The notes beneath the pieces were generated by a model. The model did no database searches. It had not been told where the DNA came from and saw nothing but the letters and a program-made list of their open reading frames with translations. From Nitrospinota bacterium (GTDB lineage Bacteria; Nitrospinota_A; UBA7883; JACRGQ01), in contig JAOUMJ010000012.1 in the NCBI GenBank assembly GCA_029881495.1, positions 36,904 through 68,903 of the forward strand: a stretch of 32,000 nt of DNA, written 5' to 3'. This document shows, in pieces, positions 3,070 through 19,416 of the stretch; the first letter of the stretch is position 1, and each line of letters opens with the position of its first letter. A program made the translations under genes and the position numbers.

Positions 3070-4002
3070 TTATCTCACTATCTCCGTTCCGATACCCTTG
3101 TCGGTAAATATCTCAAGCAATACGGAGTGCTTCACCCTTCCGTCGATGATATGGGTTTTCTTTACGCCGGCATCAAGCGCCCTAAAACAGCTTTTCACCT
3201 TGGGCAGCATCCCCCCCTTGATAACCCCCTTTTCGATAAGCTCTTCCACTCGGCTTTCATTCAGATGGCTCAACAGCTCCTTGTCGGAGCCGAGTATCCC
3301 CCTTTCGTCCGTAAGAAGGACAAGCTTTTCCGCCTTCAGCGCGGCGGCTATCTCCCCCGCTACCGTATCGGCGTTGATATTGTAGGTCTCCCCTTTCGAG
3401 CCTACCCCTACCGGCGCTATGACCGGGATGAAATTGTCCTTGTCGATGGTCTCAAGTATCTCCTTGTTTATCTTCGTCACCTTGCCGACCATTCCGATGT
3501 CGATTATCTCCGGCCTGTCGACGTCCGCCGTCCGCTTTTCAATAAGCATCTTTTCGGCTTCTATCAGGCGGCCGTCCTTCCCGCTCAATCCGACGGCGCG
3601 CCCACCTTCGCTCGACAACAGCGAAACTATCTCCTTGTTCACCTTCCCGACGAGAACCATCTCAACCACGTCGATAGTCTCGCCGTCCGACACCCTGTGC
3701 CCGTCCACGAACCGCGTCGGTATCCCCATCTTTTCGAGGGTCTTCCCTATCTGCGGACCGCCGCCATGAACGACCACCGGATTTATTCCAACAAGTTTGA
3801 GAAGAGCCACGTCGCGGGCGAAGCCCTCTTTCAGCCCCTCTTCCACCATCGCGGATCCGCCGTACTTTATGACTACCGTCTTCCCGCTGTACTGCCGTAT
3901 ATATGGAAGCGCCTCTATAAGGACAGCCGCCTTCCCTATCAATTCATTCAGATTCAGTTCACTCATCAGCGCAGTATACACCGCAAACAGTTCGTCTTGC
4001 AT
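3070..4002 (-). CDS. argB: acetylglutamate kinase
   Basis: [39 protein letters not shown] and [15 protein letters not shown] are typical ArgB motifs. An alternative start is the ATG at 3966, preceded by TATACT-N6 (see the leaderless finding). Confidence 0.92.
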
Positions 4003-4059
4003 CCGGAAGAGTGAACATCTCCCACTTCCCCATGCCTCTTCGCCAACATCTCGCGGGGG

Positions 4060-4992
4060 CTATCCTCCCCCCCTCCTCTTCCTTGCGTGCGGGTGGGCGC
4101 TGTCGTATACGTTCATGAGCCTCTCTATCCCTACATGCGTGTACTTCTCCGTGGTGCCAAGCGATGAGTGACCGAGCAGTTCCTGAATGGCGCGGAGATC
4201 GGCCCCTCCGTTCAGCATATGCGTCGCGAATGTGTGGCGTATCATGTGGGGGGTGAGGCGCTTTATTATACCCGCCCTGATGCCGTGCTTCACCACCACC
4301 TCGTAGGTCTGCCTCATCGAGAGCCTCTTTTTCAGTCTGGAGTAAAAGAGCGGGCCGCTATCCTTCCCGTTGCTTTTCATCAGCTCCCTTATCGCAACAG
4401 CCGCCTTTTTGCCGACCGGGATGATCCGCTCCTTGCTCCCCTTACCCATCACCCGGACAAGATTGCCGGTGAGGTCCACATCCTCGGCATTCAATCCCTG
4501 CAGTTCGGCGATGCGTAGCCCGCTCGAATAGAAGAGCTCAAGCATCGCGCGGTCGCGGAGCATCGTCGGCGATCCTTTGTCGGCGCTATCCATTAGCGCG
4601 AACGCTTCATCCACAGAGAGGAACTTCGGCATCTTCTTCGGTTTCTTCGGGAGCGGGACAGCCTCCGCGATGTTCTTCTCCACCATCCCTTCGCGCGCGA
4701 GATAGCGGAAGAAGGCGCGGAGAGCGGAGAGCTTTCTCTCTATGGACGACGGCGCGAGTTTTTTTCTATGAAGCTCCGCCACGAAAGAGCGTACCGCGAT
4801 AACCTCCATCTTCTCGAAATCTATCGCGCCGGAAGTCCCCTTTTTTTCAACCAGCGGACTTTTGAAAGCGAACTCGGCGAACTGCGCGAGATCCTTTCCG
4901 TACGCCTTGGAAGTTTTCGGGGAGAACCCTTTCTCTATGGAGATATGCGTCAGGAATTTTTCAATCTCTTTTGGAATTTTTACCTGTTCCAC
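4060..4992 (-). CDS. xerC: site-specific tyrosine recombinase, XerC/XerD family
   Basis: 310 aa with a GTG start. The C-terminal catalytic region HMIRHTFATHMLNGGADLRAIQELLGHSSLGTTEKYTHV, the RDRAMLELFYSSGLRIAEL box and the N-terminal SAM-like core-binding domain are present. XerC and XerD cannot be told apart by eye. Confidence 0.85.
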   Translation of the reverse strand: MEQVKIPKEIEKFLTHISIEKGFSPKTSKAYGKDLAQFAEFAFKSPLVEKKGTSGAIDFEKMEVIAVRSFVAELHRKKLAPSSIERKLSALRAFFRYLAREGMVEKNIAEAVPLPKKPKKMPKFLSVDEAFALMDSADKGSPTMLRDRAMLELFYSSGLRIAELQGLNAEDVDLTGNLVRVMGKGSKERIIPVGKKAAVAIRELMKSNGKDSGPLFYSRLKKRLSMRQTYEVVVKHGIRAGIIKRLTPHMIRHTFATHMLNGGADLRAIQELLGHSSLGTTEKYTHVGIERLMNVYDSAHPHARKRRGGG

Positions 4993-4998
4993 AGGAAC

Positions 4999-5027
4999 AG
5001 TTTAGGACCAGACCCGGCAACTATCAA
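4999..5027 (-). promoter_or_regulatory. candidate sigma70-type promoter of the recombinase gene
   Basis: Minus strand TTGATA(5027..5022)-N17-TAAACT(5004..4999), with only 6 nt (GTTCCT) before the GTG start at 4992. No Shine-Dalgarno sequence is present. Confidence 0.35.
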
Positions 5028-5054
5028 GAGTGATCGGTCTTCATGCTCATACCT

Positions 5055-5388
5055 GCCACCCCCGCGTATGCGGGGATCCAGATATCACTATCCCGCCGCT
5101 CTTGGTTCCCTTCTTGTCACCCCCGCGTATGCGGGGATCCAGATATCACTATCCCGTCGCTCTTGGTTCCCTTCTTGTCATCCCCACGGAAGCGGGGATC
5201 CAGATATCACTATCCCGTCGCTCTTGGTTCCCTTCTTGTCATCCCCGCGTATGCGGGGATCCAGATATCACTATCCCGTCGCTCTTGGTTCCCTTCTTGT
5301 CACCCCCGCGTATGCGGGGATCCAGATATCACTATCCCGTCGCTCTTGGTTCCCTTCTTGTCATCCCCGCGTATGCGGGGATCCAGAT
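5055..5388 (+). repeat. 61-bp-period tandem array: six 29-nt CRISPR-I-E-like palindromic repeats and five near-identical 32-nt intervening segments
   Basis: Units start at 5055, 5116, 5177, 5238, 5299 and 5360. The repeat is GTCA[T/C]CCCCGCGTATGCGGGGATCCAGAT; unit 1 starts GCCA and unit 3 has CCCCACGGAAGCGGGG. The intervening 32-mer ATCACTATCCCGTCGCTCTTGGTTCCCTTCTT is identical in 4 copies and has one T>C change in the first. No cas genes are in the window. Confidence 0.95.
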
Positions 5389-5453
5389 TTCTAGCATTGG
5401 CGGCGTACACACTGCGAAAATAATTCCGATGCTATCGGGAGAAGAGGAATTAA

Positions 5454-5485
5454 ATGTGCAATACGGTACAAAATTGTATAATTCT
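5454..5485 (+). promoter_or_regulatory. conserved 32-nt upstream motif with TATAAT (paralogue 1)
   Basis: ATGTGCAATACGGTACAAAATTGTATAATTCT matches 29/32 nt with the sequence upstream of the paralogue at 19385..19416. TATAAT lies at 5477..5482, 8 nt before the ATG at 5491, and there is no SD. Confidence 0.45.
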
Positions 5486-5490
5486 CAGCA

Positions 5491-6546
5491 ATGGCTGAAA
5501 TCGACACAGAAAAGCTGAACAGACAGTGGAAACCGGAGGAAGTTTCCAGGAGTGACCTTCGCCTATTCATTTTAGTAGTGATAGGTTTATCTGAAATCTT
5601 TTTATTATCAATTTTTATGGCGGCTACGTCGCCTTTGGAATTTATAGAAAAAAACCCTGCCTTCTCCGACATTTTCAAGAACATCCTGCCTCTTATCCTT
5701 GCCGCGCCGATAGCGCTCCCTATCTGGTACTGGCGGGATCAGAACAAGAAGGCCGATATACAGAACGCCAGAGAGGACCTTATCCAGAAGGATTTTCACG
5801 AAATACAGAAGTGGGCAGTTGGATTGGGTGGCGACAAAAATGAAACCTTGCAGATTGCCGCCATTCATCAACTGAAACCGTTTGCCGTCGGCATACATGG
5901 GGAGAGATTCCAGAGGCCAGCATATGAAATATATTTCTCCCTTCTCCAGTCATGGCCGGAGGAAGAGGTGAATGACGAGACAGTGGTTCCAAACCATATA
6001 CTGGCCATCCACACCGTCTTCCGCGAAGAGGGGAGCAAAATCACAAAAAAGATGAACAGAATAAACCTGGCAAAGGCAGATCTTTCAGGTGCGGATCTCA
6101 GCGGTGTCAACCTCGCAGAAGCCAATCTGCAATCGGCAGAACTATTCAGAGCCAACCTGCAATCGGCAAACCTTATGCTTGCCAACCTGCAATCGGTTAA
6201 TCTTGCTCATGCCAACCTGCAATCGGCAGACCTATCTGGAGCCAACCTGCAATCGGCAAACCTTCGCTATGCCAACCTGCAATCGGCATACCTTTTACTT
6301 ACCAACCTGCAATCGACAGACCTATCTGGAGCCAACCTGCAATCGGCAGAGCTTGAAGGAGCCGAATTCGAAGATAGAGAGATCATCAGGGGTGAAAACT
6401 GGAATAAGGCAGAGTACAGTAAAGGAAAATTGGAAAACCTGCAAAAACTCTACAAGGAATTAAAGGGAAAAGATGAGAAGAATTATTGGGACCCTGAAAG
6501 CGAGAATTACATCTTCCCTCCTCCCATCCACGACAGCAGGGACTGA
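5491..6546 (+). CDS. membrane-anchored pentapeptide-repeat protein (paralogue 1)
   Basis: 351 aa. It has two N-terminal hydrophobic helices (LRLFILVVIGLSEIFLLSIFMAA; ILPLILAAPIALPIWYW) and a conserved middle region (WRDQNKKADIQNA...LQIAAIHQLKPFA). About 20 A(D/N)LxxA-type pentapeptide units follow (ADLSGADLSGVNLAEANLQSA...), then a conserved tail (ENWNKAEY...YWDPE). Confidence 0.85.
   Translation: MAEIDTEKLNRQWKPEEVSRSDLRLFILVVIGLSEIFLLSIFMAATSPLEFIEKNPAFSDIFKNILPLILAAPIALPIWYWRDQNKKADIQNAREDLIQKDFHEIQKWAVGLGGDKNETLQIAAIHQLKPFAVGIHGERFQRPAYEIYFSLLQSWPEEEVNDETVVPNHILAIHTVFREEGSKITKKMNRINLAKADLSGADLSGVNLAEANLQSAELFRANLQSANLMLANLQSVNLAHANLQSADLSGANLQSANLRYANLQSAYLLLTNLQSTDLSGANLQSAELEGAEFEDREIIRGENWNKAEYSKGKLENLQKLYKELKGKDEKNYWDPESENYIFPPPIHDSRD
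6121..6360 (+). repeat. eight in-phase 30-bp tandem DNA repeats inside the pentapeptide-repeat coding region
   Basis: Each unit is an 18-nt core GCCAACCTGCAATCGGCA (exact in 5 of 8 units, 1-2 mismatches in the rest) plus a 12-nt variable part. Each unit encodes ANLQSAxLxx, i.e. two pentapeptides. Confidence 0.9.
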
Positions 6547-6603
6547 CGATCATCCCCACTCCATCCACAAACAGCCACCCTACCGCAAGCATGACAAACC
6601 GCG

Positions 6604-6630
6604 CTGGATCCCCGCCTCCGCGGGGATGAC
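6604..6630 (-). repeat. solitary inverted copy of the 29-nt palindromic repeat
   Basis: Plus strand CTGGATCCCCGCCTCCGCGGGGATGAC is the reverse complement of GTCATCCCCGCGGAGGCGGGGATCCAG. The stem and flanks match the array repeat, but the loop is GGAG instead of GTAT. Confidence 0.8.
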
Positions 6631-6738
6631 AAGAGGACTGGAAACAAATATTCATATAAATTTTATGACAAACCGTGCAGGAGTTCGCTCTCGCGATGTT
6701 GGGTATGACAAGGGGAAGGGGGTGACGCCAGAAGAAAG

Positions 6739-7677
6739 CTAGCGGCAACGGCCTGTGAAGAAGTTCCTTACTCTACCTCTTCTGATGCAGGATCTTATTT
6801 TCTTAACAGCTTCGGACGCCGCATCGCGCCCCGCCTGCACCGCCTCTTCCGCTTTCGAAAAATCGGCCCAGTGAATACCTTTCGTCTTCGGCGTGATTAT
6901 ATAGTCCGCCCCTTCCAGCTGAAGGTTCGCCAATACGCGCCTCGTGACCACGCTCCCCCCAGTTATCACTTCGAGGGAGTTCGTCGGCTCCGGCTCCGGC
7001 TCGTCGTCCTGCATGATATCGACCGCTATCACTATATCCGCCCCCATGATGCGCGCGCGCCTTACCGGGTTCTGTTCTGCCCAGCTCCCGTCTATCAGCA
7101 CCATCCCCGCCATCTTTACGGGGGGGAATATCCCCGGAATAGAACATGATGCGAGTATCGCCTTCTGCACCGACCCCTTTTCAAAATAAAAATTCTTCCT
7201 GGATACAAGGTCCGTGGCGCAACATGAGAAAGGTATCTTGCAGTGGCGGAACTCGAGGTCCGGCACGATGTCCGCGATGTTCCTCTCAAGCACCCCCGCC
7301 GGGAGATACGATACGTTTGTGAGCGAAACGCCGTAGAAGTACGACCTTCTCAGCTTTCTCGATATCTTTCCGAGAAGTCCGTTCAGCACACCCTGTTCAC
7401 CTACCTTCGTGGAGCTGAGGAAATCCATCTTTGCGTCTTCGTAATCGTCGCTTTTGAGGAAATCTATGAATCTTTTTTCGATCTGCTCCGCGACCGGATC
7501 GAGAGCGTACATCCCGCCGATAACCGCGCCGATGCTTGTTCCGGCGATGAGATGGATAGGGATCTTTGCCTTTTCGAGTTCGCTGAGGACCCCAAGATGC
7601 GAAAGACCTCTTGCCGCGCCGCCTCCCAGAGCAAGGCCTACTTTAACGCCGCGAAATATGCCTCCCATAACTACCAA
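6739..7677 (-). CDS. patatin-like phospholipase (RssA-like)
   Basis: Oxyanion/Gly-rich GGGAARG, nucleophile elbow GTSIG and a DGS catalytic Asp region (VLIDGSWAEQNP). The start is TTG at 7677, or ATG at 7668. Confidence 0.85.
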   Translation of the reverse strand: MVVMGGIFRGVKVGLALGGGAARGLSHLGVLSELEKAKIPIHLIAGTSIGAVIGGMYALDPVAEQIEKRFIDFLKSDDYEDAKMDFLSSTKVGEQGVLNGLLGKISRKLRRSYFYGVSLTNVSYLPAGVLERNIADIVPDLEFRHCKIPFSCCATDLVSRKNFYFEKGSVQKAILASCSIPGIFPPVKMAGMVLIDGSWAEQNPVRRARIMGADIVIAVDIMQDDEPEPEPTNSLEVITGGSVVTRRVLANLQLEGADYIITPKTKGIHWADFSKAEEAVQAGRDAASEAVKKIRSCIRRGRVRNFFTGRCR

Positions 7678-7805
7678 TATATTCTATTTGCGCGTGAACC
7701 TGAAAAATAACTGCCCTCAATGGCGGAAGATGATCCTTCCGGGCGTGGACTCAACATAGTTACTCTGTAAAACTGATCCCGTAAAAATCGAGGTATCCGA
7801 CTGCG

Positions 7806-18253: not shown

Positions 18254-19381
18254 CTACTTTATTACAACTTTAGATACATAATCTCCAATTTCTGGATCCC
18301 AATAGCCGCCTTCGCCGGTTCTCTTTGCTTCTTCGTAAACCTTGCGCAATTCTTCTAGTGCTCCCTTACCGTAAATTGCCTTGTCCCAGTTTTCGGCTTC
18401 CACTACGTGCCTATTATTAAATTTGGCTCCAATAAGTTTTGCCGATTTCAGGTTGGCTAAAGCAATAAATACCGATTGCAGGTTGACTCCTTCAAGGTTT
18501 GTGGATTCCAGGTTGGCTCCCAGAAAATTTGTCGATTTCAGGTTGGCTTCTCTAAGGTCTGCGAATTGCAGGTTGGCTCTTACTAGGGTTGCCGATTGCA
18601 GGTTGGCTCTTATTAGAGATGCCGATTGCAGGGCAGCATCTTCGAGAAATGCCGATTGCAGGTTTGCTTCGTAAAGATTTGCCGATTTCAGCTTGGTTCC
18701 TCTAAGGTGTGCCGATTTCAGATCTACTTTAGAAAGGTGGGCTGATTTCAGTACGGCCCAGTCAAGATTGACACCGTTTAAATTTGCTTTACTCAGATCA
18801 GCTTTTGCCAGACTTATGCCTACCATTTTTTTGGTTATCTCTCCCCCCTCTTCACGGAAGACTGTGTGGATAGCCTTTATGTAATTTTGGACTACGGTAT
18901 CTTCGTCTACCTCTTCCGGTTGCCATGTCTGGAGAAGAGAGAAATATATTTCATATGCAGGTCTTCTGAATCTTTCGCCATGCTTGCCTATGGCAAATGG
19001 CTTCAACTGGTGAATTGCGGCTATCTGCAAGGTCCTCTCCTTATCGCCTTCTATACCTATTGCCCATTTCTGGATCTCGTGAAAATCTTTCTGGATGAGT
19101 TCTTCCTTTGCGTTCTGTATATCGGCCTTTTTATTCTGGTCGCGCCAGTACCAGATAAAAAGTGCTATTGGCGCGGCGGCAAACAAAGGGATGACAACGT
19201 TGAAAGGTTCCGCAAAAAGCTTAACTAGAAAATCCCTCTCGAAATGTATAAGAAGCAGCTCGATGAGACCGATTGCCGTAATGAGAAAAAACCGATAATG
19301 GTCTCTTACAAACAAGAAAGGGACTGATATTCTCTGCCAAATAGCACCCCATTTATCCCGAATGAACTTTCCTGGATTCAT
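18254..19381 (-). CDS. membrane-anchored pentapeptide-repeat protein (paralogue 2)
   Basis: It aligns with the 5491..6546 product over the middle and C-terminal regions (APIALFIWYWRDQNKKADIQNA, LQIAAIHQLKPFA, YWDPE). It carries about 27 pentapeptide units. The start is set to ATG 19381 (MNPGKF...) because the longer ORF (to 19414) would run through the conserved TATAAT motif. Confidence 0.85.
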   Translation of the reverse strand: MNPGKFIRDKWGAIWQRISVPFLFVRDHYRFFLITAIGLIELLLIHFERDFLVKLFAEPFNVVIPLFAAAPIALFIWYWRDQNKKADIQNAKEELIQKDFHEIQKWAIGIEGDKERTLQIAAIHQLKPFAIGKHGERFRRPAYEIYFSLLQTWQPEEVDEDTVVQNYIKAIHTVFREEGGEITKKMVGISLAKADLSKANLNGVNLDWAVLKSAHLSKVDLKSAHLRGTKLKSANLYEANLQSAFLEDAALQSASLIRANLQSATLVRANLQFADLREANLKSTNFLGANLESTNLEGVNLQSVFIALANLKSAKLIGAKFNNRHVVEAENWDKAIYGKGALEELRKVYEEAKRTGEGGYWDPEIGDYVSKVVIK

Positions 19382-19384
19382 GGA

Positions 19385-19416
19385 AGAATTATACATTTTT
19401 GTAGCGTATCGCACAT
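19385..19416 (-). promoter_or_regulatory. conserved 32-nt upstream motif with TATAAT (paralogue 2)
   Basis: Minus strand ATGTGCGATACGCTACAAAAATGTATAATTCT. TATAAT at 19393..19388 lies 6 nt before ATG 19381. Confidence 0.45.

Follow-up and report, generated by a model that had tools for sequence, protein, structure and literature searches.

A CRISPR-shaped array in a Nitrospinota genome is probably a minisatellite of NTS-type DNA hairpins

We analysed a window of 32,000 nucleotides (contig JAOUMJ010000012.1, positions 36,904 to 68,903) from the metagenome-assembled genome (MAG) of a Nitrospinota bacterium. At 5055-5388 of this window, between xerC and a pentapeptide-repeat gene, six copies of a 29-nt hairpin repeat alternate with five 32-nt inserts. 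The array has the outline of a type I-E CRISPR, and the original prediction, made from the sequence, offered a decayed or orphan array of that type among its readings. We find it considerably more probable that this is a short minisatellite based on a DNA hairpin of the NTS/SRM type (Neisseria Transformation Sequence/Ssn-related motif), and not an adaptive CRISPR array.

Results

Six phased hairpins around one repeated insert

The array (5055-5388, + strand) was delimited by repeat search, Tandem Repeats Finder (TRF) and assembly alignment. Its repeats, GTCA[T/C]CCCCGCGTATGCGGGGATCCAGAT, start at 5055, 5116, 5177, 5238, 5299 and 5360, a step of exactly 61 bp. TRF run on the window reports 5057-5388 with a period of 61, 5.4 copies, 96% matches and no indels, and a repeat match was absent from all 100 shuffles of the window. 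The six copies at exact spacing are thereby confirmed, as is a second early observation: what look like spacers are identical save for one single-nucleotide polymorphism (SNP), and it is the repeats that vary.

That SNP lies at 5096, which is C in insert 1 (ATCACTATCCCGCCGCTCTTGGTTCCCTTCTT, 5084-5115) and T in inserts 2-5. The latter each read ATCACTATCCCGTCGCTCTTGGTTCCCTTCTT (5145-5176, 5206-5237, 5267-5298 and 5328-5359) and alternate with repeats 3-5 across 5145-5359. Among the repeats, copies 1, 2 and 5 have C at position 5, and the other three (copies 3, 4 and 6) have T. Repeat 1 (GCCACCCCCGCGTATGCGGGGATCCAGAT, 5055-5083), an edge copy, carries T2->C, reads GCCAC at its 5' arm and fails the published SRM pattern. 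Repeats 2 (5116-5144) and 5 (5299-5327) share one sequence of the GTCAC form, which matches that pattern. Repeat 4 (5238-5266), of the GTCAT form, is predicted to fold as single-stranded DNA into an 8-bp stem with a 4-nt loop. Repeat 3 (5177-5205), the variant GTCATCCCCACGGAAGCGGGGATCCAGAT, has three substitutions (CCCCACGGAAGCGGGG) that disrupt the hairpin: its calculated DNA fold reaches -6.5 kcal/mol (z -0.86) vs -10.3 kcal/mol (z -3.25) for the canonical unit. Repeat 6 (5360-5388) is the terminal copy, after which unrelated flank begins.

The array thus opens and closes with a repeat. Local alignment against shuffles detects no relation of the insert to the repeat or to either flank (p 0.16-0.97), so that the whole has the form [repeat-insert]x5-repeat set between unrelated sequence. 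On these p values we rejected an origin of the insert by decay of a repeat or flank copy, and they mark a 29-bp period row in the TRF output (50% matches) as noise.

By sequence, the repeat is an NTS/SRM hairpin

The NTS, CGTCATTCCCGCGMAVGCGGGAATCYRG, includes the classical dRS3 palindrome, and the SRM was defined alongside it as a degenerate motif (Chenal et al. 2025, Nat Commun 16:2388, PMC11893778). According to the same work, the small single-domain GIY-YIG protein SsnA binds and cuts the NTS hairpin solely as single-stranded DNA and on one strand only. The GTC upstream of the palindrome and the C directly after it are critical for cleavage and binding, ssn genes are often motif-flanked in many bacteria, and NTS copies bracketing genes are described in Neisseria (PMC11893778).

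Judged by its sequence, the window repeat is a member of this family, in the form published as an Ssn target. It agrees with the NTS consensus at 23 of 28 positions, and two stem differences amount to one compensatory change from a T-A to a C-G pair, a replacement common elsewhere in the family. Both critical elements, the GTC and the C, are present. The published SRM pattern matches five of the six array copies, against 0.2 matches expected per window. Each unit carries, on the + strand, a G-free pyrimidine leader, the GTCAY arm, an 8-bp stem (ATCCCCGC/GCGGGGAT), a 4-nt loop and an ATCCAG arm.

To survey the family we used a query of the hairpin core and its first 3' bases only, CCCCRCGNNNGCGGGGATCCAG, with one genome per species. 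The scan returned at least 120 loci in genome contigs and a further 52 viral contigs. The matches listed include Alpha-, Beta- and Gammaproteobacteria, Planctomycetota, Omnitrophota, Patescibacteria, Cloacimonadota, Gemmatimonadota and others. The exact GTCAT arm, which lies outside the query, is found in 154 of the 204 matches listed, most others being one base off, and 119 of the 204 have an inverted partner within 120 nt. An unsearched arm and an inverted partner in most matches indicate a conserved, dispersed and oriented element. Ssn-like GIY-YIG open reading frames (ORFs) of about 95 aa adjoin such hairpins in 17 fetched loci, one of them confirmed as PF01541. Hundreds of unrelated loci carry the palindrome with no 61-bp phasing, one of them being a solitary inverted copy in this genome, 1.2 kb away from the array; this speaks against the CRISPR-derived reading in the original prediction.

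In one of the loci, L006 from Rhodopseudomonas pentothenatexigens, NTS-like hairpins are contained in the units of much longer tandem repeats, one of 310-313 bp (5.5 copies, 5398-7118) and one of 170 bp (2.5 copies, 108-539).

A seventh, inverted copy downstream of the pentapeptide gene

The original prediction counted six copies, all in the array. A looser hairpin search adds one outside it: a solitary seventh copy, cctctt followed by GTCATCCCCGCGGAGGCGGGGATCCAG, lies inverted at 6604-6630 (- strand), 58 bp past the stop codon of the pentapeptide-repeat gene. It separates that gene from the convergent patatin gene, lies about 1.2 kb from the array, and occurs in both assemblies available for the locus. 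Its loop is GAG and its last two bases differ from those of the array repeats. With this copy, the pentapeptide gene is bracketed in the arrangement NTS(x6) -> gene <- NTS. Like repeat 1, the seventh copy fits the strict core GTCAYCCCCGCG-N3-GCGGGGATCCAG.

The leader of the seventh copy, CCTCTT, resembles the last ~8 nt of the array insert (CCCTTCTT), a G-free pyrimidine stretch of the kind found 5' of other NTS copies. Solitary members of the family have C (66%) or T (30%) at position -1 and are G-poor at positions -5 to -9. Since a leader of this kind is common to the seventh copy and to solitary members elsewhere, the last ~8 bases of the apparent spacer belong to the element itself.

The readable DNA of this genome amounts to 52 kb, that is, the 32-kb window and 10 kb on each side. 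We found no further NTS copy in it beyond these seven, nor in three contigs of related strains, which end before the array. The absence of cas genes from the 32 kb, stated in the original prediction, extends to the additional 10 kb on either side.

Copy number differs between two assemblies

The same locus is present on a 362-kb contig of an ENA assembly with 3 repeats instead of 6. The difference is exactly 183 bp, or three units, and the shorter form retains precisely units 1, 2 and 6; the variant repeat 3 is among those missing. The left flanks agree with 0 mismatches in 5,054 bp and the right flanks differ by 2 SNPs in 11,158 bp. These two SNPs, at 7748 and 15819, are G in the window and A in the ENA contig (16.2 kb compared), as in two very close strains or populations.

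Three versus six repeats in near-identical assemblies imply amplification of the unit, with a copy number that either is unstable or has been mis-assembled. The predicted amplification of a single unit in 61-bp steps gains support from the second assembly with its units 1, 2 and 6. Recombination or slippage between the identical units 2 and 5 would yield the shorter form, and so would a de Bruijn-graph shortcut.

It is improbable, in our estimate, that the tandem copies or their number are products of short-read assembly of a repeat exceeding the k-mer. The two assemblies do disagree, the shorter form is what a collapse of the identical units 2 and 5 would be expected to give, and the name of the ENA contig (k141_...) points to an assembly at k=141, less than the 334 bp of the array. 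However, neither assembly has fewer than three phased repeats. Four different repeat sequences are present in the window, among them the unique unit 3, which collapse or expansion of the others could not create, so the longer form is not merely an expansion artefact. Comparable arrays are also found in many independent metagenome assemblies.

Tandem NTS arrays elsewhere and the excess at 61 bp

A JGI metagenome scan for pairs of direct NTS cores at a distance of 47-77 bp gave at least 119 loci (L175-L293). Short tandem arrays of NTS with near-identical filler are common among them and have many periods (47, 53, 59, 60, 71 and 75 bp). Examples are six copies at 53 bp (L200), three at 47 bp (L194), and arrays at 75 bp (L253), 71 bp (L183, L187) and 59-60 bp (L218, L274, L287). 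Some, such as L287, lie directly upstream of an ssn gene. The inserts of arrays with periods of 60-62 bp are not decayed hairpin cores (p<0.05 in 1 of 26).

Among the matches listed at 47-77 bp, the period of 61 bp occurs in 22 loci, vs 3-4 at most other periods and up to 8 at 59-60 bp. Pairs whose insert is unrelated to either flank number 18 at 61 bp, vs 59 over the other 30 periods (~2 each); for tandem-type pairs the enrichment at 61 bp is only mild. The arrays with unrelated inserts (L251, L263, L270, L268, L193) nearly all have the 61-bp period. This geometry is thus probably not an accident of the window locus alone but recurs at many loci of the repeat family, and the original prediction was right to treat it as meaningful. 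The peak is not replicated in the viral contigs, where 1 of 17 loci is at 61 bp and a few periods dominate, nor in spacing-unbiased single-hairpin loci, which provide just 17 pairs.

The 18 pairs come from at least 14 samples. Their loop positions are identical within a pair at 0.83-0.89 and between loci at 0.29-0.33, so the two repeats of a pair are copies of each other. The segment that they share begins at the G of GTCA and ends one base past CCAG: identity is 0.67 at position 28 (background 0.26), falls to 0.39 at position 29, and is 0.44 at position -1 (background 0.42). These limits define a 28-bp duplication with a 33-bp insert.

Other arrangements were seen in the same set. In L230, L211, L198 and L264, some fillers contain only the 5' half of the hairpin (GTCATTCCCGCG), then a pyrimidine leader before a full hairpin, as if replication had template-switched across the stem; the L230 filler and the window insert share their last nine bases, TCCCTTCTT. 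L185, L222, L242, L226 and L191 are tight tandems with a period of 29-36 bp, made of leader and hairpin without filler.

Could a CRISPR integrase have made the first unit?

The family-wide 28+33 geometry raises a possibility that competes with the minisatellite reading solely on the first origin of the 61-bp unit. A type I-E Cas1-Cas2 integrase may have taken an NTS hairpin as an off-target repeat, duplicated 28 bp of it and inserted 33 bp, the resulting unit being amplified later by unequal recombination. NTS/SRM hairpins, which share the I-E stem and arm geometry, may then be natural off-target landing sites of this integrase, each hit adding the 61 bp of the family-wide peak, and the window array an amplified neo-CRISPR seed. 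We rate this as a distinctly less probable course of events.

Several observations are consistent with it. A 28+33 product with arms of 5+6+4+6+7 has the geometry of the E. coli I-E integrase; the canonical spacer of E. coli type I-E is 33 bp, and the ruler motifs lie in inverted repeats that the NTS shares. Exactly 61 bp is where the pairs with unrelated inserts accumulate, and their repeats are copies of one another bounded at position 1 and after position 28. Off-target Cas1-Cas2 integration is documented as a source of new arrays (neo-CRISPR; Nivala, Shipman & Church 2018, cited in bioRxiv 10.1101/148544, PMC7054753). The likeness to such events lies in the duplication of repeat-like genomic DNA on both sides of an insert of spacer size, at a site removed from cas genes. 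The window array is itself bounded by repeats around an insert unrelated to either flank.

Two metagenome loci add to this. L278 (~3930-4620) and L292 (reverse strand, ~1740-2430 in reverse-complement coordinates) are homologous loci from one sample whose flanks align on both sides, while the NTS arrays between them differ in number of units and in their 33-nt inserts. A fragment of a type I-E cas operon, L252 (1-1972 of Ga0073928_10139325), contains an NTS-ssn(GIY-YIG)-NTS cassette between casE (1898-1299) and cas1e (734-3; 351.7 bits, cutoff 215.6), showing that both systems co-occur; two long-loop SRM variants lie in the same interval. It was the sole match when E. coli K-12 Cas proteins were compared by tblastn with the ~315 fetched loci. 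L278 additionally has a 34-bp duplication of leader plus hairpin and a 42-nt internal deletion.

Other features do not suit an integrase. In the window, the insert end (CCCTTCTT) resembles the native leader CCTCTT of the solitary copy, and at least this part is element DNA and not a foreign spacer. The last insert base is C in 13 of the 18 pairs, no different from solitary copies, and G is partly depleted over the final 10 nt, like in native leaders; in this the pairs differ from reported neo-CRISPR events. The upstream copy is short of a full 28-bp repeat in 3 of 18 pairs (a long-loop variant in L252, the 3' half only in L199 and L219). A G at position 29, which in type I-E derives from the protospacer adjacent motif (PAM), occurs in 8 of 18, no more than among solitary copies (0.41); neither this G nor the C at -1 departs from the solitary family members as a PAM-like base would.

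The window insert has no match outside arrays in IMG/VR (searched with a 26-mer), INPHARED phages, PLSDB plasmids or all fetched DNA, and thus no protospacer in those collections; there is no cas gene in the 52 kb around the array; and the 61-bp peak was not replicated in the small viral set or in the spacing-unbiased pairs. For the window array itself, boundaries of 28+33 are not settable, its inserts being identical. Given the native-like insert ends, the partial upstream copies, the ordinary G29, the missing protospacer and the unreplicated peak, we did not adopt the integrase as the main explanation.

A genuine type I-E array is very unlikely

An orphan or decayed type I-E array in which a single repeat-spacer unit was amplified is by now largely refuted, and we rate its chances as very low. 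What suggested it was the 29+32 nt geometry, together with repeats at both array ends and a more degenerate copy at the end distant from the AT-richer flank. The E. coli K-12 repeat, GAGTTCCCCGCGCCAGCGGGGATAAACCG as read from the K-12 CRISPR-I array, has the same CCCCGC/GCGGGG stem around a 4-nt loop and the same 5-nt 5' and 8-nt 3' arms, in an array with periods of 61 to 62 bp. The likeness claimed at the outset is therefore real for stem, arm geometry and period; over the whole repeat it is moderate, at 18 of 29 positions.

Against such an array, the repeat belongs to a dispersed non-CRISPR family, usually met as single copies or inverted doublets. Its 3' handle is AUCCAGAU, unlike the type I-E AUAAACCG. 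The inserts are the same apart from one SNP, and no recognisable leader or, in the 52 kb, cas gene accompanies them. An Rfam search of the array at E<=10 returned no CRISPR-DR model and no other credible family, and the searches of viral, phage and plasmid collections that gave no protospacer weigh on this reading as well. Of the idea of an orphan array with an amplified unit, then, the amplification stands and the I-E membership does not.

RNA, sponge and recombinase readings

Equally remote is a functional RNA or protein-binding array, whether as a structured 5' leader that regulates xerC or the pentapeptide gene, as a minus-strand CsrA-type sponge or as a set of XerC core sites. The array does lie in a divergent intergenic region beside xerC, and in fold calculations the repeat hairpin folds well on both strands. 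The minus-strand sponge proposed in the original prediction is left with RsmY-like matches of 12-14 bits against a gathering score of 57, and two of the four GGA motifs per unit are in the stem or at its base, not in the loop. The candidate promoters on either side of the array face outwards, at a level not above chance.

As to recombination sites, dRS3, the palindrome within the NTS, is a known phage-recombinase target in Neisseria. The enzyme concerned, however, we take to be a phage transposase and not a tyrosine recombinase, which counts against a Xer site. The XerC encoded here looks like the ordinary housekeeping enzyme, and the hairpin is met in many unrelated settings that give no hint of Xer dependence, although Xer adjacency at those loci was not tested.

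Genomic context

The window is ordinary chromosome. The gene order is tRNA-Gln, prs, a HEAT-repeat protein, a FliL-like protein, argB, xerC, the array and the pentapeptide-repeat gene; beyond it follow patatin, an ABC transporter, TIM, SecG, CTP synthase, KdsA, HemB and others. The divergent xerC (4060-4992, - strand) starts 63 bp from the array, and nothing links XerC to the element. The pentapeptide-repeat gene (5491-6546, + strand), between the array and the inverted copy, encodes a probable membrane protein to judge from a hydrophobic N-terminal stretch.

Promoter-like sites lie at 5027-4999 (-) and 5397-5424 (+), both outside the array and directed away from it; they are not above chance. 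NCBI annotates no coding sequence between XerC and the pentapeptide protein, as is evident from their consecutive accessions. All three + frames are open across the array (ORFs 4768-5394, 5030-5518 and 5043-5423, of 126-208 aa), and the hairpin translates as V-I-P-A-Y-A-G-I-Q, a type of peptide familiar from spurious hypothetical proteins. A coding role was rejected: the 126-aa ORF at 5043-5423, the sole one tested, has no Pfam match and no gene is annotated by NCBI.

Elsewhere in the window, a paralogue of the pentapeptide gene lies at 18254-19414 (-), and the gene at 5491-6546 alone is bracketed by NTS copies. The pentapeptide-repeat regions show tandem periodicity of 30 and 90 bp at the DNA level (6109-6354; 18423-18721). 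The tRNA-Gln(TTG) gene (1059-1133, - strand) is just upstream of prs; a 353-aa mechanical ORF, 73-1134, overruns it, and the called prs starts at 1023.

Discussion

We propose the following origin for the array, as a minisatellite on an NTS/SRM-type hairpin. The seed would have been two direct NTS copies 61 bp apart. Unequal recombination or replication slippage between hairpin copies would then have multiplied a unit composed of the hairpin, ~24 nt of filler and the leader; unequal exchange between two such copies would build [repeat-insert]x5-repeat. The product is probably neither an RNA gene nor coding, and is probably placed between two divergent promoters, to go by consensus-level matches that are not above chance.

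Its effect is likely to be at the DNA level, by analogy with the published NTS/Ssn family. Whenever transformation, replication or repair exposed the + strand as single-stranded DNA in a cell that has a cognate Ssn, the array would offer six predicted cleavage sites beside the pentapeptide gene. The repeats also likely make the locus prone to recombination. Without such an enzyme, the array would be selfish or neutral DNA.

Several points weigh against this reading. Cleavage and any phenotype are predicted from the published family. The model leaves the exact 61-bp spacing of its seed without explanation. No GIY-YIG gene of the ssn type was found across the 52 kb, and just seven copies in that stretch do not establish an NTS-rich genome. 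The SRM pattern is permissive, and repeat 1 and the seventh copy fall outside it. Beyond the 52 kb the genome may carry a cas locus or a genuine array of this repeat, and the 3-vs-6 difference could be a de Bruijn-graph collapse, units 2 and 5 being identical. On balance the first reading of this DNA was right about the amplified unit and the meaningful geometry, and wrong about the family to which the repeat belongs.

Compared with NTS/SRM elements described so far, the window repeat has the same oriented ~28-nt hairpin (CGTCAT, stem, loop, stem, ATCYRG), intergenic position, copies bracketing a gene and membership of a phylogenetically widespread group. It differs in having C-G in the stem where Neisseria has T-A, in its loops (TAT or GAG), in its host, a Nitrospinota MAG with no ssn gene seen in 52 kb, and in the phased direct tandem array with identical fillers; the words "tandem", "direct repeat" and "NIME" are absent from the text of Chenal et al. 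2025 (PMC11893778).

The closest described arrangement to tandem NTS arrays is the neisserial intergenic mosaic element (NIME), in which dRS3 repeats alternate with RS elements, called "spacer" regions by the authors, in arrays whose copy number and length differ from strain to strain (Bentley et al. 2007, PMC1797815). NIME fillers comprise more than 100 families of 19-214 bp, and in 2007 they had not been observed outside Neisseria (PMC1797815). In the window, likewise, a 20-bp palindrome (ATCCCC-N8-GGGGAT) alternates with filler beside genes, in variable copy number and length. Unlike a NIME, the array repeats a single 32-nt filler, and its palindrome is not an exact match to the dRS3 pattern ATTCCC-N8-GGGAAT. 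By sequence it is NIME-like but not a NIME in the strict sense.

A looser parallel is provided by the REP, BIME and REPIN elements mobilised by RAYT transposases: short intergenic hairpins, often in inverted doublets, that act as single-stranded DNA and flank a small dedicated nuclease gene. REPs are species-specific and start with a tetranucleotide of the GTAG type. The NTS family, in contrast, is nearly identical across phyla, and its partner is a GIY-YIG nuclease and not a Y1 (HUH) transposase.

For annotation, the result gives an identity to a class of CRISPR-shaped false positives, which can be recognised by GTCAY, the stem, ATCCAG and a pyrimidine leader before them. It extends the NTS/Ssn motif to Nitrospinota, and phased tandem arrays and NTS -> gene <- NTS brackets to genomes outside Neisseria. 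The part that most deserves pursuit is the family-wide 28+33 rule. If the pairs are made by a CRISPR integrase, dispersed hairpins would be a testable source of new arrays; if they are not, the NTS family would have its own, unknown ruler-based copying mechanism. Should the neo-CRISPR reading prove true, loci of this kind would be a natural snapshot of a dispersed repeat giving birth to CRISPR-like arrays, or a sign of historical kinship between the two kinds of repeat.

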